This document shows positions 9,578 through 61,600 of a stretch of 64,000 nt of DNA, piece after piece (the first letter of the stretch is position 1; each line of letters starts with the position of its first letter). The notes below the pieces were generated by a model, which was given only the letters and a program-made list of their open reading frames with translations, did no database searches and was not told the DNA's origin. The stretch lies in NCBI GenBank assembly GCA_028687545.1, contig JAQTZZ010000010.1:50118-114117 (forward strand). Direction: 5' to 3'. Source of the DNA: Candidatus Wallbacteria bacterium (GTDB lineage Bacteria; Muiribacteriota; JAQTZZ01). Position numbers and translations under genes: made by a program.

Positions 9578-12217
9578 ATGAAGTCCGGTTTGCTAAATCT
9601 CAGCAGAAACGAAATTGTCGATATGCTGGCTGAAAAATCCCGCACAGGATGCGTCTGCGTCGCTGGCCTTTCCGGATCAGGCAAAACCTGGCTGGCTAAT
9701 GCACTGGCCGCTGAGATTCAGAAAAGAGGGAGAAATGCCCTGCAGATCGACTGCAGACGGGCCTGGACCACATCGGATGTTTACAGCGCTTTATCTGAAT
9801 CCCTGCTGCAGCTCACCTGTGACAACAGTGTTCAGGCTTTTTCCAGTGATCCCGGAAAGTTCCTCGGATTCATCTCACGAAAAAATATTACCCTGATCAT
9901 CGATAACTTCCATTTTGCGGAGAATCCAGAAACGATTGCTTTACTTGAAGAAGCGGCTTCTGGAAGAAACGGGATCGTGGTTTTCTCCAGAGAAAGGCCG
10001 AAAATGGACCTGGCAACCAAGGGTGAAGTCTTCACCTGCGTGTTACCGGGTTTAACTGAGCATGAAACAGGAGTGATGTTCGATTCCCTGTTCGAAGTCC
10101 AGGGCCAGGAGACGCCGGGTTATGAGGCGAAACAGGCAGTCTTCCGTTTGACTCAGGGTCACCCCTTTTCGATCAGGGTGATCTGCGCATTGCTTGGCCG
10201 GGGTAACCTGACACTGTCAGACCTCAAAAAAGGTGAAAATGAAACCCTGCTGGGCAATTACCTGGAATGGCCTGCCTGGAATGCCCAGTCTGATGATTTC
10301 AGGCATGTATTGAAACTGATCAGCATCATGCGCACTCAAGTCGACAGGGAAATTATCCGGGACATCGCCGGAGCGGACGCCGCAATAGTGCTGGAAAAGC
10401 TCCGGATTTCCTGCCTCTCAGAAATCGACCTGTACGGCAGGATCTCGCTGCCGCTGATCCTGAAGAATTTCATCAGGGGGAAGATTCCGGAGACCGAGCT
10501 GTTGGAGTTGCATAAAAAAACTGCAGTTCTGCTGCTTTGCAGATTCGGTTTCGAACCTGCCTACCTGGAAGAGATTTTCTACCATTTTTCCAGTGCAGGA
10601 GAATGGCATGCTGCTATCGACGCCCTGACCGGCTTTGGTGAGGAGAACCTTTTTCTACAGGGCACATGCAGTGGTCTCATCCCTCTTATCAGAAGTGGGG
10701 CTTGGGAAGATAACTACAAAAAGAAGGAGTTGAAGTTAGTGTTGATAGACCAGTTGATCCTCATGGAGAGATTCCAGGAAGCTCAGGAGGAAATCGAGGG
10801 GATCGGCGGGTTTTATGGTAAATTCTTTGCTGCAGGAATTGAGTACTTCAAGTGGAACAACGAATCTGCGCTTACCCAATACAGCAAACTTCTCAGCCAG
10901 ACCAGAGATCAAAAACAGAGATTTCTGGTGCTCAATAGAATTGCCTTATGTCATATTTTTATTGGCAATTTCGAGAAAGGCCGGGAGTTTCTTATAGAAT
11001 TATCAAAGATGCAGGAATTCGCTGCCAATCCGCTGGCTGCCATCAGGTTTTACATTTCCAGCACAAAGTTTTCTGAATACTGCGGGAAATACGATGATCA
11101 ACTCACTGCAATTGAAAAAACACTCGACCTGATGGAGGAAAACGGAATAAAAACCGGGCTAGGTATTATCCTGTATGTAAAAAGTTATTGTCTTGCGATG
11201 CTGGGCAGGAATGAGGAATCGGCCCGGGTGGCAGGGGAAACATTGAAGATTGCCGAGAAGCATGGTGATACTGTGCTTCTAGCGTTAGCATATGATCTGC
11301 ATGCATTACTCACTCGCTATGGCAGTGATTGGCGAAAGTCCATCGAGTACCGGCTCAAATGCATAGAATTATGCAGATGCTCAAATAACACTGTTCACAT
11401 AGCATCGCATCAGGTCGAAATCGGCACTGCCTATCTGAGACTTGGAGAAATAGAAACTGCTGAGCACTATTTCCAATTAGTCCTGGAAACTATCGACAGT
11501 ATCGAAGACATTGCGCTGAAAATCATAGCAATCAATTCCTATTGCGAGTTGCTGATCGCCACAGGCCGTTTCAGGGAAGCTCTGGAGCAGCTGCAGTCAG
11601 TCGAAAAGCAATTCCAGGGTAAATGTCCGCCACTTTGTACGAGCTTCAATTTTCTGATGGGAACATCCCTCGAAAAGCTTGGCGAAGCTGAAAAGGCCGG
11701 TCACTATTTCAGCCTCCACAGAATGGATCTGGATTCCATTCCCTCAGAAACCAGGAAACTATTCGAAAAGGAGGATGCCTGGCTGATTGCCAAGCTGCAG
11801 GAACCGAAGAAGATCAGGATCCTCCGCCGGGATACCGCTCCCGGATATATCAGCACAGAAGAAGTGGATTCCATACGCAGCCAGGCCGGGACTTTCGAAT
11901 TTTTTGCGGATTTTATGGGTTCATACGTAATTGTGGATGGAAGAAATATCGAAATCTTCAAGAAAAGGGTCATGGCGAGGATGTTGCAGGAACTGGTTTC
12001 AATCCCAGGGACCGAATTCAGCGCCGAACAACTTTATCCGAAGCTCTGGAACAGGAAATTCGAGCCTGAATCCGATGCAGGCACATTCCGCGCCGCTGTC
12101 TCCCGCCTGCGGAAAACTCTGGATCCGGACCATTCGCTCCGCTTCATCCTGAGCACTAAAGACTCCAGCGACTGCTGTTTCAACCCTGCAGTGAACTATT
12201 GCATACTGCTTCCCTGA
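9578..12217 (+). CDS. Signal-transduction P-loop NTPase (AAA_16/STAND-like) with TPR-like repeats and a C-terminal OmpR-type winged-helix domain
   Basis: Walker A GLSGSGKTW and Walker B LIIDNFH at the N-terminus. Helical repeat region in the middle. The C-terminus (FRAAVSRLRKTLDPD) resembles the trans_reg_C recognition helix. Paralog of 52302-55478. Confidence 0.6.
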   Translation: MKSGLLNLSRNEIVDMLAEKSRTGCVCVAGLSGSGKTWLANALAAEIQKRGRNALQIDCRRAWTTSDVYSALSESLLQLTCDNSVQAFSSDPGKFLGFISRKNITLIIDNFHFAENPETIALLEEAASGRNGIVVFSRERPKMDLATKGEVFTCVLPGLTEHETGVMFDSLFEVQGQETPGYEAKQAVFRLTQGHPFSIRVICALLGRGNLTLSDLKKGENETLLGNYLEWPAWNAQSDDFRHVLKLISIMRTQVDREIIRDIAGADAAIVLEKLRISCLSEIDLYGRISLPLILKNFIRGKIPETELLELHKKTAVLLLCRFGFEPAYLEEIFYHFSSAGEWHAAIDALTGFGEENLFLQGTCSGLIPLIRSGAWEDNYKKKELKLVLIDQLILMERFQEAQEEIEGIGGFYGKFFAAGIEYFKWNNESALTQYSKLLSQTRDQKQRFLVLNRIALCHIFIGNFEKGREFLIELSKMQEFAANPLAAIRFYISSTKFSEYCGKYDDQLTAIEKTLDLMEENGIKTGLGIILYVKSYCLAMLGRNEESARVAGETLKIAEKHGDTVLLALAYDLHALLTRYGSDWRKSIEYRLKCIELCRCSNNTVHIASHQVEIGTAYLRLGEIETAEHYFQLVLETIDSIEDIALKIIAINSYCELLIATGRFREALEQLQSVEKQFQGKCPPLCTSFNFLMGTSLEKLGEAEKAGHYFSLHRMDLDSIPSETRKLFEKEDAWLIAKLQEPKKIRILRRDTAPGYISTEEVDSIRSQAGTFEFFADFMGSYVIVDGRNIEIFKKRVMARMLQELVSIPGTEFSAEQLYPKLWNRKFEPESDAGTFRAAVSRLRKTLDPDHSLRFILSTKDSSDCCFNPAVNYCILLP

Positions 12218-12293: not shown

Positions 12294-13298
12294 ATGAACG
12301 AAAGTAGATGGTGGAGGTGTAAAATGAAAAGGAACGTAACAAGAGAAATCATCACAGGAATCCTGATGGCAATGTTGATCGTGCTGCAGTACGGAGCGGT
12401 CTGTGCAGGTGAAACACAAGTCGGTTCAGGGTTGAATTCAGATCATTCCGCGTATTGCGTCGTTGATCCTTCGGAAGCCAATGTTTACATCGATCCTGCA
12501 GCAGCTACAGGAGCCAGGGAAAGTGCGGCAGTGGGTAAGCTCCCGCAGGGAATCAGATGCCAGGTAGTTGCAGAGGAGGACGAAGCCTTGCAGGTTGTCT
12601 GTGAAACAGGGGAAAAATTCTGGATCAACGTGCATGACGTCAAACAGGCGAAATCAGAGCCTGCAGCCGTGTCTACAGGTGAATCAACTGTGAAATACAG
12701 TGTTTTCTGGGACGTAACAGTCACTGTCAGGCCCGAAAGCACGACAAACAACCAGACCATCAATAAAGAATACAGATGGCTGATCGGCAAGTGCGAAACA
12801 GTGGATGAAGGCATCAAGCTCTCAGAAAAACTCATGGGCATCACTTCTGAAGAGAACAAGAAAATCTTTGAGGAAATCAGGAAAAAAGTATGCCAGGACC
12901 TGAATCAGGAAATCGCTGAAAATCAGATGGAGATATACGTGCACTTCGCAGCTGAAAAAGACATCGTTCAGGTTAACGATCCATCACTTAAGGGCGACAG
13001 TCACCCGAGATTCAAAGTTTACTGGGACGTTAAAGTCACTGTCCGGCCTGAAGGCCAGACAAGCAGTCAGACTATCAATAAAGATTACAGATGGTTGATC
13101 GGCAAGTGCGAAACAGCAGACGAAGGCAACAAGCTCTCCGAAAAACTCATGAACATCACTTCTGAAGAAAACAAGAAAATCTATGAGGAAATCAGGAAAA
13201 AAGTATGCCTGGACCTGAATCAGGAAATCGCTGAAAATCAGCTTGAAACATTCTGTCACTTCTCACCTGAAAAAGACATTGTTGAGTGCAGAAATTGA
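12294..13298 (+). CDS. Secreted hypothetical protein with two tandem ~95-aa repeats
   Basis: Likely start at 12324 (MKRNVTREIITGILMAMLIVLQYGAVCAG signal peptide). Two ~90%-identical tandem units (VFWDVTVTVRPE...EKDIVQV and VYWDVKVTVRPE...EKDIVEC) lie at about 12700-12970 and 13015-13290. Confidence 0.6.
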   Translation: MNESRWWRCKMKRNVTREIITGILMAMLIVLQYGAVCAGETQVGSGLNSDHSAYCVVDPSEANVYIDPAAATGARESAAVGKLPQGIRCQVVAEEDEALQVVCETGEKFWINVHDVKQAKSEPAAVSTGESTVKYSVFWDVTVTVRPESTTNNQTINKEYRWLIGKCETVDEGIKLSEKLMGITSEENKKIFEEIRKKVCQDLNQEIAENQMEIYVHFAAEKDIVQVNDPSLKGDSHPRFKVYWDVKVTVRPEGQTSSQTINKDYRWLIGKCETADEGNKLSEKLMNITSEENKKIYEEIRKKVCLDLNQEIAENQLETFCHFSPEKDIVECRN

Positions 13299-33038: not shown

Positions 33039-33133
33039 AACCGTTTTCAGGATTTGTAAGGCTCGCTTGATTTAGCTTTTTTTCAGCCGCCCGAAATTGA
33101 AATTCTGAAATCCGGAGTTTAACATTCATTCAT

Positions 33134-33410
33134 ATGAACAAGAAGTTTCATAATGTAACAAGGGACGGTATTATCGGTCTGCTTGCCGGCAAATCGGCCC
33201 TGACCGGGTGCGGTAAGATCGTGGTTTTTTCAGGACCAAGGCCGAAAACAGGTGCTAAAATCACGTCCGATGTTTTCACATATGTTTTGCCGGGTCTGGC
33301 TGAGCCCGAGACCAGAATGATGATTGACTCAATCTTCGAGTTTCAATGCCTTACTCAGCGGGTTTTCGAAATGATCCAGCTTTTCCCAGTTATACAGTAT
33401 TTATTCTGAA
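33134..33410 (+). pseudogene. Chimeric remnant: internally deleted N-terminus of a P-loop NTPase paralog joined to the 3' end of a VOC gene
   Basis: GIIGLLAGKSALTGCGKIVVFSGPRPKTGAKITSDVFTYVLPGLAEPETRMMIDSIFEFQ matches 52302-55478 and 9578-12217 but lacks the P-loop region. The segment cttactcagcgggttttcgaaatgatccagcttttcccagtta at about 33350-33410 matches the VOC 3' end at about 17395-17440. Confidence 0.55.
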
Positions 33411-52301: not shown

Positions 52302-55300
52302 TCAGCGATGCTGCTTTTTCGATTCAAACACTTTGCAGTCGTCGATCAGTTCATAGGCATTCTGATAACGCTTGGCAGCATCCTTTTCAATCGCCTTCAT
52401 CACTATCCGGTCAAGTTTCTGAGACACCTCAGGCACAATCCCGGATGGCGGGGGAGGTGAGGTGTTGAAAATCTTGTACAAGGCCTGCTCGGGGTTATTT
52501 CCCTTGAAAGGTAAGGTGCCTGTCAGGAATTCGTAAAGCGTCACTCCCAGCGCGTAAATGTCCGTGCCTTCGACAATGTCGCCACCCCTGAGTTGTTCGG
52601 GGGGCATGTAGTAAAGAGTGCCGAACACCTCGCCGGTTCCGGTCATGGATGCTACATCCAGAACCTTGGACAGGCCGAAATCCATGATCTTGGCGAGACG
52701 ATTCTGGTGCAGCATGATGTTGTCAGGCTTGATGTCGCGGTGGATGATGTTGTGGCTGTGGGCATAGGCAAGGGCTTCGGCCACCTGGAGGGCGATGCGC
52801 GCCACATGCTGCGGCTGAAGCCTGCCGAGGCGGTCCAGGATTTTCCTGAAGCTCTCGCCTTCCACGTATTCCATCACGATGTATGGTATCTCCCCTTCGA
52901 CGACCTCGAAGATCCTGACGATTCCAGGATGATCGAGCCTCTGGGCGGCCAGCCCGTCCCTTTTGATGAAGCGGCGGATGAATTTCAGATTGTCGCGGTA
53001 TTTTTCCGCAAGCACCTTGATGGCGACTGTCCGGTCGCGCTTGATGTCCAGTGCCTTGAAAACCACACCCATGCCGCCCATGCCGATCTTCTGGAAATCT
53101 TTGAAATTTCCAGCCAGGCCATCGATTATCAGGCCGGGGTCCGCGGAATCCGCGAACAATTCATAGGCAAGAGCCTGCTTCGCCTTGAGAGCCGGTGGCC
53201 CAATCTTTCCCAGTTCGCGCAGTTTGACCGTCAGCCAGGAATCATCCTCTTCGGTCAGCTTCCTGGTTTCTGCAGACATGGAATCCAGGTCGATCCGGTA
53301 CTGCTTGAAATAATCGCGGGATTTAGCCGATTCCCCCAGTTTTTCAAGCGCTGTTCCCATCAGAAAATTAAAGCTGGTAAACAGGACCGGGCATTGACCG
53401 TGGAAAAGCTTTCCGATTGCCTGAAGCCTTTCCAGGGCTTCCACGAATCTGCTGGAGAAAAGCAGCAATTCACAATAGGAATAATTCACTCTGACCTTGG
53501 GAGCGAAGTCGTCCACCTGGTCGATCGTTTCCAGCGCTTTTGCAAAATAATCTTCAGCAACATCTTCTTCCCCCAGCCTGAGATACGCCCTACCGATATC
53601 GGCATGCGTCCAGGCCGTAAAAACCGCGGAATTGGAACGCTGGAAAAAATCCCTGCTCTTCAGGCGGTATTCGATGGATTTCCTAAAATCTCCCTGATGG
53701 TAGCTGAGAGATCCCAGCAGGCCGCAGGCAGTCCCGGAAAGAGCGGAATCGCCTTGCTCCTCTGCCAGTTTCAACACCTCAACGGCGACCTGTCCAGCTT
53801 CTTCCATTCTGGCAAGTTTCAGAAGGAAATGCCCTTTCAGGGACAAAATATCTCCCAGAAAAGTTTTCATCCCGTTTTCCCTGGCCAGCCCGACTACCTG
53901 CTCGATCTCTGAGAGCGCTTTCTCAACGTTTCCCAGGTAGTCGAATAAAAACGAGTTGCATCTGAAATACAGGGCAGTTGCTTTCAAATCGGATGCGAAT
54001 CCCTGCATTTTAGGTATTTCTTCAAGAATTTCCCGGCTTTTTTCGAGATCCCCTAGCTGCAGATGGCACATGCCGATTTTGAACAGCAGCAGAAATTTCA
54101 AGGTCGGATCTGCTTCCTTCAGCAGGAGAGAGAATGAATCCAGCGCGGCTTCGATGCCGCCCTTGTAATATTCAATGCAGGCGGCAAAAAATGCCCTGTG
54201 TACACCCTCGATGGCTTCGATTTCCACCTGGGCTTCCTCAAATCTATTCTGCAGGATCAGCTGGTCGATCAGGGCCAGTTTCAAATCACGCTCACGGTAC
54301 CCGGCTGATTCGAGCTCGTTCCGGATGATGAACACAAGGTCGCAGCTTACAGACGGAAGGAACAGGTTCATATCTCCGAACTTAATCAGGGCATCAATGG
54401 CGGCATGCCTTTGTCGCGAAAAGAGAAAATGATTATAAATCTCTTTTACATACAGCGGCTCTGAACCGAAACGCTTCTGCAGCAGCAATGCTGCTCTGTC
54501 GTGCAGCTCCTCCATCTCTGCATCCGGTATCTTTTCCCTGATGAAACTCTTGAGGATCATGGGCAGGGAAATCTTGCCGAAGGAATCGTACTCGGCCAGG
54601 CACGAGTCTCTCAGCCTGTCCAGCATGGTTCCGTCATTGTCCGCTGCAATATCCCGCACGATTTCGCTGCCCACAGGGATGCGGAAAACACTGAGTTGCT
54701 TCAGGATCTGCCTGAAATCCTTAGTCTGGGATTTCCAGAAAGAACCCTCGAAAAAATGATTGATGATTTCATCGAGTTTTTTATCTCCGCCCCACTTGGT
54801 CAGGGTCATCTCTCCTGATAACAAAAGAGCGCAGATCGCCTTGACTGAAAAGGGATGTCCCTGGGACAGTTTGCAGATCTTTCTTTTCGTTTCCGCATCC
54901 GGGAGATCACGATTCTGAAACTCGAAGATCGAGTCAACCATTTCCAAAGTTTCGGATTCGATCAGCGGGGGCAGGAAGTATGTGAAAATGTCCGCTGAAA
55001 CTTCAATCGAGGTTTTCGGTCTGGTTCTGGAAGTGACGATCACCCTTCCCTCTGCAGAGGAAGAAGCCTTTTCAAGCAGGTCAAGCGTTTTTCTGCTTTC
55101 GCTCATGTGAAAATCGTCGATGATCAGCTTGATGTCCCTTTTGGACAGGAAATCAAGAAACTTTTCCGGATCATGGCAGAAGATCGGTACTTCCTTGTCG
55201 CCGGCATAAAGGCGCAGGGTGTCTGAGAGTGAACTGTAGAAATCCTCTTCAGTCCAGGCGTCCCTGCAGCGCAGGATGATTGAGTTCCACCCGTTCTTCT

Positions 55301-55478
55301 GCAGGCTGGCGAGCAATTCTCCTGTCAGCCATGTTTTGCCTGACCCGGGCAGGCCTACTATGCAGACGCAGCCGGCCTGGGAAAATTTGCGGACCAGGAG
55401 TTCTATGATGTCTTTTCTGGAAATTTTTGGACTCTCGTTCATTACCTGAATTTTATCTCTCAACGTTGAAAATTTCAA
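52302..55478 (-). CDS. P-loop NTPase (AAA_16/STAND-like)-TPR-Ser/Thr protein kinase, 1058 aa
   Basis: N-terminus: Walker A GLPGSGKTW and Walker B LIIDDFH. Middle: TPR-like helical repeats. C-terminus (about 52305-53200): a complete Hanks kinase with GMGGMGVV, VAIK, HRDIKPDN, DFGLSK and GTLYYMPPE. Confidence 0.85.
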   Translation of the reverse strand: MKFSTLRDKIQVMNESPKISRKDIIELLVRKFSQAGCVCIVGLPGSGKTWLTGELLASLQKNGWNSIILRCRDAWTEEDFYSSLSDTLRLYAGDKEVPIFCHDPEKFLDFLSKRDIKLIIDDFHMSESRKTLDLLEKASSSAEGRVIVTSRTRPKTSIEVSADIFTYFLPPLIESETLEMVDSIFEFQNRDLPDAETKRKICKLSQGHPFSVKAICALLLSGEMTLTKWGGDKKLDEIINHFFEGSFWKSQTKDFRQILKQLSVFRIPVGSEIVRDIAADNDGTMLDRLRDSCLAEYDSFGKISLPMILKSFIREKIPDAEMEELHDRAALLLQKRFGSEPLYVKEIYNHFLFSRQRHAAIDALIKFGDMNLFLPSVSCDLVFIIRNELESAGYRERDLKLALIDQLILQNRFEEAQVEIEAIEGVHRAFFAACIEYYKGGIEAALDSFSLLLKEADPTLKFLLLFKIGMCHLQLGDLEKSREILEEIPKMQGFASDLKATALYFRCNSFLFDYLGNVEKALSEIEQVVGLARENGMKTFLGDILSLKGHFLLKLARMEEAGQVAVEVLKLAEEQGDSALSGTACGLLGSLSYHQGDFRKSIEYRLKSRDFFQRSNSAVFTAWTHADIGRAYLRLGEEDVAEDYFAKALETIDQVDDFAPKVRVNYSYCELLLFSSRFVEALERLQAIGKLFHGQCPVLFTSFNFLMGTALEKLGESAKSRDYFKQYRIDLDSMSAETRKLTEEDDSWLTVKLRELGKIGPPALKAKQALAYELFADSADPGLIIDGLAGNFKDFQKIGMGGMGVVFKALDIKRDRTVAIKVLAEKYRDNLKFIRRFIKRDGLAAQRLDHPGIVRIFEVVEGEIPYIVMEYVEGESFRKILDRLGRLQPQHVARIALQVAEALAYAHSHNIIHRDIKPDNIMLHQNRLAKIMDFGLSKVLDVASMTGTGEVFGTLYYMPPEQLRGGDIVEGTDIYALGVTLYEFLTGTLPFKGNNPEQALYKIFNTSPPPPSGIVPEVSQKLDRIVMKAIEKDAAKRYQNAYELIDDCKVFESKKQHR

Positions 55479-55563: not shown

Positions 55564-58500
55564 TCAGATCCTGTTCTTCTCGTAAATTTTGTTCAATGCA
55601 AGTTTAGCCTGTTCCCTGACTTCGCGGCTTTCGTCCTTCAGGGCTTCCTTGAGCGGCGGAATGGCCCGCACATCGGAGATCCTGCCGAGGGATTTGCAGA
55701 CAGCCCCGCGCACGCTCTTGCTGCGGTCAGAGAGCAGTTCGATCAGAGAGTCGCAGGATCCCACACTCTTGATGTTTCCCAGCACCAGCGCTGAATGTTC
55801 CCTCATGAATCGGTTGCGGTCATACAGCATCTTAATCAGGATCTTTTCCAGCTGATTGTTCTGAATCATGGACAGGATCTCTGTGGAATTGTCCCGCAGC
55901 ACCTGGTCGTCGTTCTTCAGGCATTTCACCAGCAGCGGGATAGCCTGTTCGCCAAACTGGCTGATTGCCTCGAAAATCTTGTTCTTGATCCACATGTTCT
56001 CCAGGCTGAGGTTCTTGACCAGCGGTGTAATCGCACCTGTATCTCCGATTTTGCCGAGTGCTTCCACGGCTTCTTCCCGCACGCGGTTGTCCGGATCGTC
56101 CAGCAGCTTGTACAGACTTTCCAGAGCTCTGCGGTCCTTCTTCTCACCCAGGATTCTGGCGGCTTTCGCCCGTACCAGATCGCTCTGGTCATTGATGCTC
56201 TTCAGAATGATCGGCACCACTCTGTGGTCTTCAATATTCCCGAGGGATTCAATGATCCTGATCCTGATCGTTTCGCTCTTGTCACCCAGAGATTCCGTGA
56301 GCGGTTCCACTGCTCTCGGATCCCGGAGCGCGCCAAGGGTCTCGATGATCGTCATCCGGATCTTTTCGTTGGAGTCGCGCAGGACTTTGACCAGTGGTTC
56401 CACTGCCAGCGCGGAACCGATCTTGCCAAGGGCTTCCACAGCGACCTTGCGCAACTGCTCGTTGGAGTCCTTGAGGCTTCTGACCAATGGTTCAATCGCA
56501 CGCACATCTTTGAATTCGCCCAGCGTGTAAATAATGCTTTCCTTGGCATAATCATCCGCCACGGTAAGCTCCTCAAGTAAGATACGCACAATTTTCTGCT
56601 CCCCGATTTTCACCAGGGCATTGGCTATTTCATAGTAATCAACGCCATCGGTTTTATGCTTCAAAAGCCCTATCAGCACTTCGATTGCCTTGGAATTGCC
56701 GAGTTCCCCGAGAGCAAACACGGCCCAGTATTTAGCGATTGACTCAGATTCGGACAGCACTTCGATCAGCTGGTCCACCGCCTGCTCGTTACCGAATTTT
56801 CCGAGCAGTTCGGCCACATTTCTCTGCATGCCGTTCAATACTTCCCGGACAGTGCAGAAAATATTTTCGTCTTCAAGACCTCGCAGTTCTTCCAGATCTT
56901 TGGCGCGGATTGTATCTTTCAGGATCGAAACCAGCATCCCGGATACCCTGGAATCTTTTTCCCGGATCAGGCACTGGGCGATGGTGAAGCGCAGCCATGA
57001 ATATGATTCCCTCATCACCAGGATCATCTTGCGGCTTTCCATCACTGCCCTGTCGATTGAGAGCAGGGCATCCACGGTAAGAGCCTTGATTTTCTTGTCA
57101 TTGCTGTCCAGAAGCCTGACCAGCGGCATGATTGTCCTGATGTCTCCAGTTCTGGAGAACACACGGATTACTTTGGACTTGATGTCACTTTTTGAGCCGG
57201 GAAGAAATTCCACCAGGGCTTCAGTGGCCTGTTCCTTGAATTTGACCAGCGCATCTACAGCTTCTTCGCTCACCACAACATTCTCATCTGACAGTTTTCG
57301 AATGAGCCTGGAGATAGCCATCTCGTTCTTGATCACTCCCAGCGCAATTACAGACTGTTTTCTGACTTCATCGTTGGCATCGTCGATCACTTCGATCAAA
57401 GCTTCGGTTGCCATGCGGTTACCGATCTTGCCAAGAGCGATCACAGACTGTTCGCGCAGCCGTTCATCCTTGTCATCCAGATGCTGGATCACTGTTTCAG
57501 TGGCTTCCTCATCGCCGATCTCGCCAAGCGCGATGATGGCTTTCTGCTTCAATTCAGGTGCGATATTCTCGCTCAACAGTTTGATCAGGGGAGCCACCGC
57601 GCGTGGTGTTTTCAAAAGTCCCAGGGACTCGCAGGCTGCAAGGCGCACTTCATCCTGTACGTCAGCCAGAGCTTCGATCAGGGATTCGCAGGAAAACGGA
57701 TCACCGATTTTTCCGAGTGCTACGGCCGCTTCCTTGCGGATCCTTTCATTGAGATCCTTCAATAATATGGAAATCGAGTTTACTATCTCTCGACGGCGGA
57801 TTTCACCAAGCGCCCAGACAGCTTTGAGTTTGACATCATCGTTCTGGTCTGAGAGCTGACTAACCAGCACATCCAGAGATTCTTCGGCCCGCAGGAGGCC
57901 GAGAGCTTCGCAGACGGCACTTCTGACCTCGTCGACCGGGTCGTCAGCCAGCTTATTAAGGGCCGGGATAGCCTTACGGCTTTTAATTTTCCCCAGGGCT
58001 TTAGCAGCCACAAAGCGCAAGTCGCCGCTTTTTTCTTTCAGGAGCGGAATCAATCCATCCACAGCACGCTCATCACCGATCTTTCCTAGTGATTCGGCAG
58101 CTACATACACCAGATCATCATTTTCATTATTCAGAACCAGCAGCAGGTGTTCCACAGCCTGGACTGATCCAATCTTTCCCAGAGCCTTGATCAGCAGATA
58201 GCAGATATCCTCATTTCCTTCCTGCACCAGCATTTTAAGCAGGGGGTCGGTAGCGAGGCCTGAACCGATATCGCCAAGCGCTTCAATCGCTGCTTCCCGC
58301 AGATCCAGGTTGTCCTGATTTAAAATATCCAGAATAGGTTTAACACCGTTTTCGGCTTTATGTTCACCGAGTTCCTGTATGATGGCATATTTCTCGTCGT
58401 CATTCGATTCCTGCTGCAACCTGAAGAGCAGATTTTCAAGGTGTTTCTGTTCATCTTCCTCTTCCGGAACCTGGATTTCTTCTTCCTGGGACTCTTCTCC

Positions 58501-59856
58501 TTCACGTTCCCGTTCTTCCTCTGCCTGCATCTTTTTCCTGACGCGCTCAATCACGGGAACTGCTTCTTTACCCTTGGCCGGACCGCCGGGTACGCTCTCC
58601 ACGATTACAGGTTCAGCTTCATCAGAGCTGATCTCAGGTTCGATCTGCGATTTAATTTCAGGTATTTCCGGTTCCGGTGTCAGTTCGGGCAGGATTCTGG
58701 AAAGATCTGACTCTTCCCTGGAAACTGCAGGCGGTGGAATCTTTGTTTTCTTGGAAGGAGTGACTGTTGATTGAGGTACTTCAGTCTTCAAGTCAGCATT
58801 TTCCGGTTTTTTTACTTTGGGTTCTTCAGGGGAAGCGAAAAGCGTTTTGACTGCGCTCGCGTCGAAAAGTGGTTCTTCTTCAGATTCAGCTGCCGGTTCA
58901 TCCAGGCTGAATTTCTCGGTTTCAAATGAGAACTCTCCTTTTTCTTTATCTTCGCCGCTGAGATCGAAATCCATCTCTTCGGCTTTCTTCCCCTCCTCAG
59001 CTTTAGGTGGCAGAAGATCGCTGAAATCGTCATCCGAGCCTTCATCGTCAAGACTGAATTCTGCGTCATCACCCATTTTAATGTCTAAATCGCCTTCATC
59101 TTTGCTGGTTGATGGTTTCGCAGCTTTAGCTTCCGGCTGTGGTTTACTGTCCAGAGAAAAATCAAATCCGTTATCTGCGCTATCTTCTTTTTTCTTTGGC
59201 AGAAGCTCATCGTATTTTTCCTCGTCACCACCCGCAAAAAGTTCATCGAATGATTTCTTGGAATCAGTGATTTGGGCAGAGGGCGGCTTCTGGACGCTGC
59301 TTTCCAGCAAGTCCAGCTTAATCTCGCCGGAAGAACTCATGTCATCCTTCAGATCTCCGGATTCGGATTTCACGTCAATTGATGGCTGGGAATCCGAAAG
59401 ATCCAGTTCCTTGAAAAAATCATCTTCAGCGGAATCTGTGGTTTCCTTCTTGGGTTCAGATGCCTTTTTGGAAGGTACTTCTTTGGAAGGGACATCATTC
59501 AGAAAATTGCTGTCTTCATTGAGAAAATTGGACTGAATGGAAATTTCCCCGGACTCCTTGCCTTTCCTGGCGTCTTTTCCGGAATCGTTTTCCTCGACCA
59601 GCCCCAGTTCACGGAAAATATCTTCATCATCCTTGTTCGAGCTTTTACTGTTTTTATCCAGATTCAGGTCCAGATCGAAGAGGTCGTCCTCCTCGCGGAT
59701 CATGGCATCGATACCATCGCCCTTTTCACTTTTCACCTTGGCTTTCAGGCCGCCGATGTCCAGATTGGCTTTTCCGCCTTCATCAAGCCCGGCTCCGCAT
59801 TCGACGCAAAACTTGCTGTTATCGACATTATCAGCTCCGCAATGGGGGCATTTCAT
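55564..59856 (-). CDS. Giant zinc-ribbon / acidic disordered / HEAT-repeat (PBS-lyase-type) protein, 1430 aa
   Basis: MKCPHCGADNVDNSKFCVECG zinc ribbon. About 450 aa rich in D, E, K and S. Then more than 25 HEAT/E-Z repeats (...RLAACESLGLLKTPRAVAPLIKLL...). The start lies 26 nt inside the ptsI 3' end. Confidence 0.7.
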   Translation of the reverse strand: MKCPHCGADNVDNSKFCVECGAGLDEGGKANLDIGGLKAKVKSEKGDGIDAMIREEDDLFDLDLNLDKNSKSSNKDDEDIFRELGLVEENDSGKDARKGKESGEISIQSNFLNEDSNFLNDVPSKEVPSKKASEPKKETTDSAEDDFFKELDLSDSQPSIDVKSESGDLKDDMSSSGEIKLDLLESSVQKPPSAQITDSKKSFDELFAGGDEEKYDELLPKKKEDSADNGFDFSLDSKPQPEAKAAKPSTSKDEGDLDIKMGDDAEFSLDDEGSDDDFSDLLPPKAEEGKKAEEMDFDLSGEDKEKGEFSFETEKFSLDEPAAESEEEPLFDASAVKTLFASPEEPKVKKPENADLKTEVPQSTVTPSKKTKIPPPAVSREESDLSRILPELTPEPEIPEIKSQIEPEISSDEAEPVIVESVPGGPAKGKEAVPVIERVRKKMQAEEEREREGEESQEEEIQVPEEEDEQKHLENLLFRLQQESNDDEKYAIIQELGEHKAENGVKPILDILNQDNLDLREAAIEALGDIGSGLATDPLLKMLVQEGNEDICYLLIKALGKIGSVQAVEHLLLVLNNENDDLVYVAAESLGKIGDERAVDGLIPLLKEKSGDLRFVAAKALGKIKSRKAIPALNKLADDPVDEVRSAVCEALGLLRAEESLDVLVSQLSDQNDDVKLKAVWALGEIRRREIVNSISILLKDLNERIRKEAAVALGKIGDPFSCESLIEALADVQDEVRLAACESLGLLKTPRAVAPLIKLLSENIAPELKQKAIIALGEIGDEEATETVIQHLDDKDERLREQSVIALGKIGNRMATEALIEVIDDANDEVRKQSVIALGVIKNEMAISRLIRKLSDENVVVSEEAVDALVKFKEQATEALVEFLPGSKSDIKSKVIRVFSRTGDIRTIMPLVRLLDSNDKKIKALTVDALLSIDRAVMESRKMILVMRESYSWLRFTIAQCLIREKDSRVSGMLVSILKDTIRAKDLEELRGLEDENIFCTVREVLNGMQRNVAELLGKFGNEQAVDQLIEVLSESESIAKYWAVFALGELGNSKAIEVLIGLLKHKTDGVDYYEIANALVKIGEQKIVRILLEELTVADDYAKESIIYTLGEFKDVRAIEPLVRSLKDSNEQLRKVAVEALGKIGSALAVEPLVKVLRDSNEKIRMTIIETLGALRDPRAVEPLTESLGDKSETIRIRIIESLGNIEDHRVVPIILKSINDQSDLVRAKAARILGEKKDRRALESLYKLLDDPDNRVREEAVEALGKIGDTGAITPLVKNLSLENMWIKNKIFEAISQFGEQAIPLLVKCLKNDDQVLRDNSTEILSMIQNNQLEKILIKMLYDRNRFMREHSALVLGNIKSVGSCDSLIELLSDRSKSVRGAVCKSLGRISDVRAIPPLKEALKDESREVREQAKLALNKIYEKNRI

Positions 59857-61600
59857 CAGAGACCTCCTGCGCTTTTATGCAATTCCTGTGAAAATTCTCC
59901 AAAGTGGACTTGATTTCTTCGGATTTGCATAACTTCATAATTGTATCGGCAAGTTCCCGTGCGTCGTCCAGATGCAATTTATTGATTATCTTCTTTATGC
60001 GTGGAATTAAGGGCGGACTGAGGGACATCTTGTCGATGCCGAAACCCAACAGAACAGGCGTAATCAGTGGGTTTGAGGCCATCTCGCCGCAAATGGAGGT
60101 CCAGAGTCCGTTTTGATGGACTCTATCGATGATTTTTTTCAAGCTGCGAAAAATCGCCGGATGAAAAATATTGTAAGATTCGGAAATATAAGGGTTATTT
60201 CTGTCAACTGCAAGGATAAATTGCAGAAGGTCATTGGTCCCGATACTGAAAAAATCCACTTCGCGGGAAAAATCGTCGATCAGATAGGTAGATGCAGGGG
60301 TTTCCAGTAAAACACCAAGCTTCACATTTTTCGAGTATGGGTATTTTTCTTTTTTCAGGTCATCCTTAACACCTTTAATAATCTCTTTGATTTTATGAAT
60401 TTCTTCTATCGAAGAGATCATGGGGAACAGTATGTGCAGTTTCCCGTGGGGACTGGATTTGTACAGGGCTTTCAACTGGGTGATGAACAGGGTTATGTGC
60501 TGCAGGCTGATCCTGATCCCGCGCAATCCAAGGAAAGGGTTTTCTTCCTTGATGTTCTTGAATCGATAGAACTGCTTGTCACCGCCCAGATCAAAGGATC
60601 TGATGATTACCGGCTTGTCAGGGAAGGCTTTCAGGACTCTGGAATAGCTTTTCACCTGTTCTTCTTCGGAAGGCAGACGTTCGTATTCAGCGAACAGGTA
60701 CTCCGTGCGATACAGTCCGATGCTGTTGGCACCGTACTCAGCCGCCAGCATGGCTTCTTCTTCCCTCTCAATATTAGCGTCGATCATAAATACATGCCCG
60801 TCAAGGGTTCTGGCATCCGACCTGGCACTGTCTTCTTTTTCCTTGAATTTATTGATGTAGTAATCTTCCTGCTGACGCTTGTACCGGTTTAAAGTAGGCT
60901 CGTCAAAACTCAGGATCACTTTTCCTTCAATTCCGTCCATAATCATGAGCAGATCATCAGTGATTTTGGAAGTGATGTCCGTCAATCCTACGATCATGGG
61001 AATTTCCAAGGTCTTGGCGAAGATCGCCATGTGTGAGGTGCCGCCTGATGTTTCAACACAGATTCCTGCAATCTTGGATTTATCGAAATTCATCAGGTCG
61101 CTGATCCCAATCTGGCTTCCAACCAGTACTATCTCATCATCAGACTTCTGCAAGCTCTTGGAGTCGCGGCCATGGAGAATTCCAATCACGCGTTCGCCGA
61201 CTTCACGGATATCGTCGGCCCTCTCTCTGAAATATTCTTCCTTCATCTTCTCGAAGAGGCCGATGAATTTGTTCATTACCCGAAGATAGCTGTTTTCAAC
61301 GTCGACTTTCTCGGATTTCACAATTTCGATGATTTCACCCATAAAGAGTGGATCATTCAGGATCATGATCTGAGCCTGGAAGATTTCCGAGGCTTCCTTG
61401 GAAATTTCCCGGTCAGCCCTCTGTTTAAGCTGGGCTAATTCGGAAGTGGCCTTTTTAATGGCACTGTCAAGCCGGGTGAGTTCCTTGTCAATTTCTCCAT
61501 CTGAGATGCTCCGAGGCTTAAGATTTTTACAGAGAAACTTCTTTATGATAAAGGCTTTCCCGATTCCCAGTCCTTCTGAAGCAACAATCCCTTTCAGCAT
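59831..61600 (-). CDS. ptsI: Phosphoenolpyruvate-protein phosphotransferase (PTS Enzyme I)
   Basis: GGTSHMAIFAKTLEIPMIVG PEP-utilising His motif. 589 aa with the full EI architecture. TAATG overlap with ptsH. Confidence 0.9.
   Translation of the reverse strand: MLKGIVASEGLGIGKAFIIKKFLCKNLKPRSISDGEIDKELTRLDSAIKKATSELAQLKQRADREISKEASEIFQAQIMILNDPLFMGEIIEIVKSEKVDVENSYLRVMNKFIGLFEKMKEEYFRERADDIREVGERVIGILHGRDSKSLQKSDDEIVLVGSQIGISDLMNFDKSKIAGICVETSGGTSHMAIFAKTLEIPMIVGLTDITSKITDDLLMIMDGIEGKVILSFDEPTLNRYKRQQEDYYINKFKEKEDSARSDARTLDGHVFMIDANIEREEEAMLAAEYGANSIGLYRTEYLFAEYERLPSEEEQVKSYSRVLKAFPDKPVIIRSFDLGGDKQFYRFKNIKEENPFLGLRGIRISLQHITLFITQLKALYKSSPHGKLHILFPMISSIEEIHKIKEIIKGVKDDLKKEKYPYSKNVKLGVLLETPASTYLIDDFSREVDFFSIGTNDLLQFILAVDRNNPYISESYNIFHPAIFRSLKKIIDRVHQNGLWTSICGEMASNPLITPVLLGFGIDKMSLSPPLIPRIKKIINKLHLDDARELADTIMKLCKSEEIKSTLENFHRNCIKAQEVSDEMPPLRS

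Follow-up and report, generated by a model that had tools for sequence, protein, structure and literature searches.

Introduction

Proteins of the STAND/NLR class are usually studied singly, and their effector domain is usually N-terminal. The STAND transcription factors named in the literature are MalT, with a C-terminal LuxR DNA-binding domain, GutR, AfsR, with an N-terminal SARP domain, and PH0952, with an N-terminal ArsR domain, while the STAND kinase PknK has an N-terminal kinase (PMC4381067, PMC10936776, PMC6468293, PMC13581612, PMC1262709). In MalT, inducer and ATP bring about multimerization, which leads to cooperative DNA binding (PMC4381067, PMC10427625). Here, we analysed a 64,000-nt stretch of DNA from a Candidatus Wallbacteria metagenome-assembled genome (MAG), referred to below as the window, in which two open reading frames (ORFs), A and B, encode related STAND proteins with different C-terminal outputs: a predicted OmpR/PhoB-type winged helix-turn-helix (wHTH) DNA-binding domain in A, and a Hanks kinase in B.

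Our preferred interpretation, to which we assign a probability of roughly 70%, is that A and B are lineage-expanded STAND (NLR-like) signalling ATPases, acting as ligand-gated, ATP-dependent one-component regulators with diversified tetratricopeptide repeat (TPR) sensors and a C-terminal output.

ORFs A and B are paralogous STAND NTPases

A first-pass annotation of the window had proposed three related ORFs, and all three are present, with B on the minus strand. Coordinates are relative to position 1 of the window unless the loci L002 or L003 are named. The shared core consists of a nucleotide-binding domain (NBD), a helical domain (HD) and a winged-helix domain (WHD), together forming a nucleotide-binding oligomerization domain (NOD), followed by an arm and a TPR region.

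9578..12217, + strand: ORF A, 879 amino acids; STAND NTPase (NBD-HD-WHD), arm, TPR sensor and predicted C-terminal OmpR/PhoB-type wHTH; P0001, PHW04_06910, Candidatus Wallbacteria MAG
52302..55478, - strand: ORF B, 1058 amino acids from TTG 55478; NOD-arm-TPR chassis as in A, C-terminal Hanks kinase; P0003, MDD2715642
33134..33409, + strand: ORF C, 91 amino acids; putative relic of a STAND-family member

ORF B probably starts at ATG 55442, yielding 1046 amino acids, as indicated by the alignment to A and by the NCBI gene call for P0003 (1046 amino acids). Searching the whole window with A and B by tblastn detected these three loci only, and placed the C locus at 33113-33346. Pairwise alignment of A and B gave 46% identity over ~800 amino acids (E = 0). 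The NTPase domains had been annotated as homologous, with identity below 25% named as the result that would speak against this; the NBDs alone are 47% identical, far above that value. The Walker A motif GxSGSGKTW, described for both proteins, is exact in A (GLSGSGKTW) but reads GLPGSGKTW in B. The motif LIIDxFH was found in both (LIIDNFH in A, LIIDDFH in B), as were Pfam TPR matches in the region annotated as a TPR-like middle. The modules of the A chassis are as follows.

9578..9997, + strand: A residues 1-140, NBD, with R10 of 'FxGR', Walker A, Walker B and sensor-1 SR138xRP
9665-9688, + strand: Walker A of A, G30-LSGSGK36T
9893-9907, + strand: Walker B of A, LIID109-N110; 'DN' here, 'DD' in 19 of the 24 family members shown
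9998..10492, + strand: A residues 141-305, HD (GxP motif G194-H-P) and WHD (R252, P254)
10493..11812, + strand: A residues 306-745, helical arm (306-400) and all-alpha TPR sensor (401-745)
11813..11872, + strand: A residues 746-765, short beta-hairpin and helix linker ahead of the wHTH (AlphaFold2 models)

Pfam matches in A comprised AAA_22 (31.6 bits, over threshold), AAA_16, nSTAND6, TPR_12 and a weak NB-ARC match; those in B comprised NB-ARC (29.7 bits, over threshold), TPR families, TPR_MalT and Pkinase, and AAA_22 too was matched by B as well as by A. In the NOD alignment of the family, Walker A (GxxGxGK[TS]) is invariant and the GxP motif (G194-H-P) nearly so, and the alignment also contains FxGR (R10), sensor-1 SRxRP, the winged-helix segment LSxLRxP and a Walker B of the form hhhhD-[D/N/E], with 'DN' in A, P0013 and P0024 and 'DD' in B. 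An MHD-like 'LHDLL' motif (LH[DNE]L) is present in 13 of the 24 members shown. Its histidine is replaced by proline in A ('SLPLIL'), B ('LPMIL'), P0004, P0006 and P0007. The MHD-like histidine that contacts ADP is a feature of the APAF1/NB-ARC clade and does not define all STANDs. A Walker B 'DN' or loss of the MHD-like histidine could make hydrolysis slower or weaken the ADP-locked state.

Comparison of the NOD family profile with the Protein Data Bank (PDB) identified PH0952 (6MFV) as the best match (E = 2.4e-29, aligned over profile positions 8-330), followed by plant NLR NB-ARC domains (~1e-9), MalT (2.8e-5), AfsR (3.8e-3) and, weakly, APAF1. The full-length AlphaFold2 model of A (predicted local distance difference test score, pLDDT, 89.9; predicted template modelling score, pTM, 0.78) folds residues 306-745 into an all-alpha solenoid. 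A Foldseek search with this model again returned PH0952 (6mfv) as the nearest structure (E = 8e-17, 688 columns); the matches also included MalT NOD-arm, with a target template modelling (TM) score of 0.67, Avs3 and CED-4. A and B are STAND NTPases with the domain order NBD-HD-WHD-arm-TPR.

ORF A ends in a predicted OmpR/PhoB-type winged helix

11873..12214, + strand: A residues 766-879, predicted OmpR/PhoB-type wHTH DNA-binding domain, recognition helix 'FRAAVSRLRKTL'

The main refuting test named in the first-pass annotation was whether the C-terminus of A, which contains SRLRKTL, forms a winged helix. The motif is present (as VSRLRKTL), and an AlphaFold2 model, Foldseek and comparison of a family profile with the PDB all agree on the fold. 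Trans_reg_C matched A over residues 801-857, and a search of PDB sequences with A alone gave weak matches, of which the top-scoring were OmpR/PhoB effector domains (PcoR, SaeR, RpaA). A profile built from 32 family C-termini retrieved 51 OmpR/PhoB-type DNA-binding domains from the PDB and nothing else, with SaeR (4.6e-9) and RstA (8.4e-9) as the best matches and PhoB, CadC and ToxR also present.

The AlphaFold2 model of A residues 740-879, derived from a 38-sequence family alignment, had a mean pLDDT of 96.1. All of its 50 best Foldseek matches in the PDB were OmpR/PhoB effector domains, the DNA-bound structures of RstA (4nhj), PhoB (1gxp) and OmpR (6lxn) among them, and superposition on those domains gave a root-mean-square deviation (rmsd) of ~2.5 Å over ~92 residues, with a target TM score of ~0.7. 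AlphaFold2 and Foldseek revealed an N-terminal beta sheet, a three-helix core with the recognition helix, and a C-terminal beta hairpin wing. The recognition helix carries R..[IV]SRLR..L, a motif that is almost without variation across the family and is the same as that of PhoB/OmpR. As judged from these models, the C-terminus of A is an OmpR/PhoB-type winged helix.

Among the Pfam matches listed for A and B there was no Response_reg receiver domain, and the N-terminus is occupied by the P-loop NOD. No BTAD domain was among the Pfam matches listed for A, B and 42 family members, in which the wHTH is C-terminal; the only NCBIfam AfsR match falls on the TPR region, with 22 bits against a cutoff of 1430. 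Nor was any GerE/LuxR family among the Pfam matches listed (the best 25 per table), in which the outputs were Trans_reg_C or Pkinase.

The family is rare and strongly expanded in one lineage

A word-index homologue search with full-length A returned only A itself and one paralog, and an exhaustive profile search was used instead, with the region common to A, B and P0002 as the query and 50%-identity cluster representatives as targets. This search yielded 32 representatives at E < 1e-30. A custom hidden Markov model of the C-terminal domain matched 42 of the top 150 profile hits, ~40 of which have the domain at the extreme C-terminus; the order NOD-TPR-C-terminal wHTH is thus common to ~40 representative sequences. 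Pfam matches in the 42 members were to NB-ARC (38/42), TPR_MalT (36/42), nSTAND6 (34/42) and Trans_reg_C (33/42, E <= 0.01, best 8e-12). Present database names for such proteins are 'AAA family ATPase', 'tetratricopeptide repeat protein', 'NB-ARC domain-containing protein', 'winged helix-turn-helix domain-containing protein' and 'hypothetical protein'.

Cluster look-ups identified 17 further members, B among them, with accessions in one block from MDD2714333 to MDD2717966. Together with A and P0002 this gives at least 19 paralogs, which the accession block and a shared sequencing run place in a single Candidatus Wallbacteria MAG. Of the roughly twenty copies, nearly all are wHTH-ended, two are kinase-ended and one is a dead stub. 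The three copies of the first-pass annotation are therefore correct for the window, but the source MAG holds this much larger family, in which the wHTH is the ancestral output. At least four members occur in another Wallbacteria MAG, and beyond the phylum the architecture was found in Muiribacterium halophilum (UniRef name 'OmpR/PhoB-type domain-containing protein'), two Bacillota MAGs and metagenome contigs. A scan of GTDB genomes with the family search pattern found no relatives. Because carriers outside Wallbacteria are few and paralogs within it are many, the family is rare, with strong lineage-specific expansion.

Two pairs of members are adjacent genes, MDD2714333/4 and MDD2717552/3, and the second pair lies tail-to-tail in L003.

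L003 3410-6100 (+) and 6143-8851 (-): P0013 and a 902-amino-acid paralog (P0030/P0160), tail-to-tail, 42 bp apart

The modules differ in their conservation, expressed here as the mean of the pairwise identities between 22 Wallbacteria wHTH paralogs.

NBD: 31%
HD-WHD: 29%
Arm: 28%
TPR: 21% (least conserved module)
wHTH: 40% (most conserved module)

The combination of a fastest-diverging sensor with a slowest-diverging output fits a family that would feed many inputs into one output type.

Identity between B and its sister P0004 (MDD2714334) drops along the protein, from 81% in the NBD to 66% in HD-WHD, 60% in the arm and 45% in the TPR region. This gradient points to gene conversion at the 5' end or to faster sensor divergence after duplication; the pair formed by A and P0002 has no such gradient. 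P0013 gave a weak match to RNPP_C, the TPR of peptide-pheromone receptors, and B a weak match to AimR, which hint that the ligands may be peptides.

The kinase of ORF B replaced a winged helix

52362..53102, - strand: B residues 793-1039, PknB-like Ser/Thr kinase (Pkinase E = 8.7e-53, 179.8 bits against a cutoff of 31.7)
53118..53165, - strand: B residues 772-787, 'YELFADSADPGLIIDG', first wHTH beta strands, a remnant of the ancestral module, directly ahead of the kinase
L002 4135-7188: P0028/P0153, MDD2715344, second kinase-ended member, with a C-terminal kinase

The Pfam score bears out the earlier description of a full Hanks kinase at the end of B, and the domain aligns end-to-end with PknB (E = 9e-54). 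It contains the G-loop GMGGMG, VAIK, HRD and DFG motifs and a Thr-containing activation loop. The alphaC glutamate, which in kinases normally pairs with the catalytic lysine, is replaced by aspartate; in the P0028 kinase the same position is apparently glycine, from a by-eye reading of the alignment.

In a neighbour-joining tree built on 751 shared columns, B is sister to the wHTH-ended P0004 (58% identity), and this pair is sister to A plus P0002, all within a wHTH clade. The segment 'YELFADSADPGLIIDG' of B aligns with 'YEIFADFISLLLLVDG' of P0004, the 'FAD...IDG' strands of its wHTH, and the kinase G-loop follows 13 residues on. Because B is nested among wHTH-ended forms and has kept what align as the first wHTH strands, its kinase is a secondary replacement of most of a pre-existing wHTH.

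The second kinase-ended member, P0028, falls in a distant clade, with the wHTH-ended P0017 as its closest relative (34% identity). Compared with B, it has a junction 9 residues shorter. The tree and the differing junctions favour two separate kinase captures rather than one.

The B and P0028 kinase domains are 44% identical without gaps, and a shared kinase module was considered for the two proteins. This candidate was withdrawn: 44% identity is not diagnostic, since a database search with the B kinase returned equally similar unrelated kinases from many phyla (40-45% identity, up to 262 bits).

A probable relic and the genomic context

The first-pass annotation had described the third copy as internally deleted. 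ORF C aligned best to P0004, with C residues 1-26 corresponding to P0004 residues 1-26 (11/26 identical) and C residues 27-71 to P0004 residues 132-176 (28/45 identical). The copy is indeed real, and the alignment reveals an in-frame loss of ~105 codons, Walker A and Walker B included. Homology stops after 'FEFQ' (residue 71, ~33346), although the ORF runs to 33409, and the sensor-1 arginine is changed to glycine. We consider ORF C, which is flanked by genes for an aspartate kinase and an S41 peptidase, to be in all probability a non-functional relic of another paralog.

ORF A is surrounded by an arginase-family gene, a GNAT-YCII fusion, a gene for a secreted repeat protein of no known family and a TldD/PmbA pair. 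Next to B lie genes for a large glycoside-hydrolase-like protein and a 1430-amino-acid zinc-ribbon/HEAT-repeat protein, and no wHTH paralog adjoins B within the window. A promoter and terminator scan around A gave counts at background level. Assignment of the family to a defence system was considered and rejected: PADLOC returned no defence family for the NTPase/TPR part (weak P-loop hits and generic kinase models only), no nuclease, TIR or protease domain was among the Pfam matches, and the neighbours are metabolic. Several further genes near family members were recorded.

55564-59856, - strand: 1430-amino-acid protein, immediately upstream of B on the same strand, 85-bp gap
59831-61600: PtsI-like gene, overlapping the start of the gene for the 1430-amino-acid protein
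12294-13298, + strand: 334-amino-acid protein, 76 bp downstream of A
8601-9422, + strand: GNAT acetyltransferase and YCII-related domain fusion, 273 amino acids
3305-5680, + strand: ankyrin-repeat protein, 791 amino acids (Ank_2 E = 2.5e-35)
L002 7374-8504, + strand: Fic/DUF4172 (AMPylase-type) gene, just 3' of P0028 on the same strand

The 1430-amino-acid protein combines a zinc ribbon at the N-terminus with a long stretch of acidic low-complexity sequence and ~900 amino acids of HEAT/PBS-lyase repeats (HEAT_2 E = 2e-144, 12 stretches), and could be co-transcribed with B. The 334-amino-acid protein has an N-terminal hydrophobic segment, no Pfam family and two near-identical ~110-amino-acid repeats ('...VFWDVTVTVRPE...INK[ED]YRWLIGKCET.DEG.KLSEKLM.ITSEENKKI[FY]EEIRKKVC.DLNQEIAENQ...'); its gene is not conserved 3' of the paralog P0002. 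Ankyrin is an uncommon repeat type in bacteria.

Discussion

Homology, domain identities, folds, motifs, the size of the family, position in the tree and the remnant at the junction were all observed, and form the basis for interpreting A and B as ligand-gated one-component regulators. By analogy with MalT, AfsR and PH0952, we propose that these proteins are gated by a ligand, oligomerize and bind DNA or, for the kinase-ended members, activate their kinases by proximity. The resting state would be a closed, ADP-bound monomer. Binding of a ligand to the TPR/arm region would open the NOD, allow ADP to be exchanged for ATP and promote multimerization. The multimer would bring the C-terminal wHTH domains together, permitting cooperative binding of repeated DNA sites and control of transcription, so that STAND oligomerization would substitute for the receiver-domain phosphorylation of ordinary OmpR/PhoB regulators. 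In ORF B, the same switch would cluster kinase domains, which may be activated by trans-autophosphorylation and pass the signal on as protein phosphorylation.

Several observations weigh against this interpretation. A by itself falls just below the Trans_reg_C gathering threshold (24.7 versus 26.2 bits), and every piece of structural evidence is a predicted model. With its Walker B 'DN' and no MHD-like histidine, A may have an atypical nucleotide cycle. There is no conserved neighbour or regulon in the contexts compared: the genes 3' of A and P0002 are unrelated, the contexts of P0028 and P0013 differ, and the neighbours of A and B are unrelated to each other and to those of other paralogs. 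The organism is represented by an uncultured MAG.

An immune function was weighed as an alternative. The family could be a receptor repertoire of the Avs/bNLR type, in which TPR sensors recognize proteins of phage or other foreign origin and the output domain, wHTH or kinase, triggers defence, either transcriptionally or by Stk2-like phosphorylation. A STAND NTPase joined to TPRs, a large paralog expansion, sensors that diverge faster than outputs, and pseudogenization are all typical of immune receptors, and Avs3 was among the fold matches of the A model. Moreover, defence and non-defence STAND clades are interspersed in phylogeny (PMC13581612). However, PADLOC recognized no family for the NTPase/TPR part beyond generic kinase models, the proteins carry no nuclease, protease, TIR or other toxic effector, and their neighbours are ordinary metabolic genes and not defence islands. 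As the closest solved relative is, in addition, a putative transcription factor, we consider an immune role unlikely.

We also speculate, with still less confidence, that the ~20 paralogs might constitute one NLR-like receptor network. Here, the TPR sensors would respond to different intracellular cues (peptides, metabolites or foreign proteins) around a common oligomerization core, C-termini would be exchanged recurrently between wHTH and kinase, and kinase-ended members would co-assemble with wHTH-ended members and phosphorylate them. Were this quite improbable scheme true, an AfsK/AfsR-type circuit would have evolved by output swapping inside a single gene family.

A narrower proposal is that the two types of protein form one circuit, with B-type proteins phosphorylating the wHTH paralogs or co-oligomerizing with them via the common NOD, as an AfsK/AfsR-like pair built on one chassis. 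There is precedent in the Hanks kinase AfsK, which phosphorylates AfsR, itself a wHTH-NOD-TPR STAND, and alters its ATPase activity and oligomerization (PMC10936776), and the 81% identity of the B and P0004 NBDs would allow mixed oligomers. Such a circuit is nevertheless pure inference: neither linked gene pairs nor a conserved phospho-acceptor site were identified, and B is not next to any wHTH paralog in the window. We strongly doubt that it operates.

That the C-terminal wHTH is a degenerate, non-DNA-binding module (autoinhibitory or for protein interaction) and the proteins scaffolds only, as the sub-threshold Pfam score of A and the lack of known target sites might suggest, is very improbable, given that the wHTH is the most conserved module (40%), that R..[IV]SRLR..L, which agrees with PhoB/OmpR, hardly varies, and that the modelled fold is complete, with an rmsd of ~2.5 Å to DNA-bound PhoB and RstA.

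Under our preferred interpretation of A and B as STAND one-component regulators, the family offers natural pairs that couple one and the same NOD-arm-TPR switch to a DNA-binding domain in one protein and a kinase in the other, with a visible scar at the exchange point. B and P0004, with their 81% identical NBDs, represent natural controls for how a STAND oligomer activates a C-terminal output. The family could also show whether oligomerization, instead of phosphorylation, can control an OmpR/PhoB domain. Finally, it makes up a large share of the regulatory proteins in Wallbacteria, a candidate phylum whose biology has hardly been approached by experiment.

Comparison with known systems

PH0952 is the closest solved relative by both sequence and fold, and shares the NBD-HD-WHD-arm-TPR core and the GxP and sensor-1 motifs. 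It differs in that its ArsR-like DNA-binding domain is N-terminal (PMC6468293) and the protein archaeal, whereas the domain described here is of the OmpR/PhoB type, lies C-terminal to the sensor and is bacterial. Escherichia coli MalT and the LAL regulators have the same order of NOD, arm, superhelical repeat sensor and C-terminal DNA-binding domain. However, MalT binds DNA through a LuxR-type HTH, its sensor is a SUPR rather than a canonical TPR region, and its NOD is far more distant (2.8e-5 versus 2.4e-29 for PH0952).

AfsR and the large SARPs of Streptomyces resemble the family in combining an OmpR-type DNA-binding domain with a NOD and TPRs, and AfsR is ATP-activated and regulated by a Ser/Thr kinase (PMC10936776). 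In contrast, the wHTH of AfsR is N-terminal and followed by a BTAD domain, whilst the family has no BTAD and a C-terminal wHTH nearer to SaeR, RstA and PhoB than to SARPs; the AfsR NOD is weakly similar to that of the family (E = 3.8e-3). Mycobacterium tuberculosis PknK and related fusions likewise place a Hanks kinase on a MalT-like STAND with a TPR-type region (PMC4381067, PMC1262709), but at the N-terminus, whereas in ORF B and P0028 the kinase is C-terminal, after the sensor and in place of the wHTH. The order NTPase-repeats-effector is, as had been annotated, the reverse of that in AfsR (wHTH-BTAD-NOD-TPR) and PknK (kinase-NOD-TPR). OmpR/PhoB response regulators and the ToxR/CadC one-component regulators share the output fold and recognition-helix motif; unlike them, the family is without a receiver domain, phospho-Asp site or membrane anchor, and control by a STAND ATPase switch is predicted.

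Outside the family, the closest relatives by NOD have their effectors (ArsR HTH, CHAT and GGDEF) at the N-terminus, and for this reason the C-terminal placement of the output is derived in the family and atypical of its clade. The principle itself is not new, because MalT has the same order, and we regard the arrangement as unusual rather than unprecedented. A literature search, which was not exhaustive, found no account of a STAND whose sensor is followed by an OmpR/PhoB wHTH or by a Hanks kinase. The interpretation given in the first-pass annotation was thus essentially correct, and the family represents a new architectural variant within the STAND one-component regulators, which stands out for its paralog expansion and as a clean natural case of output-module replacement.

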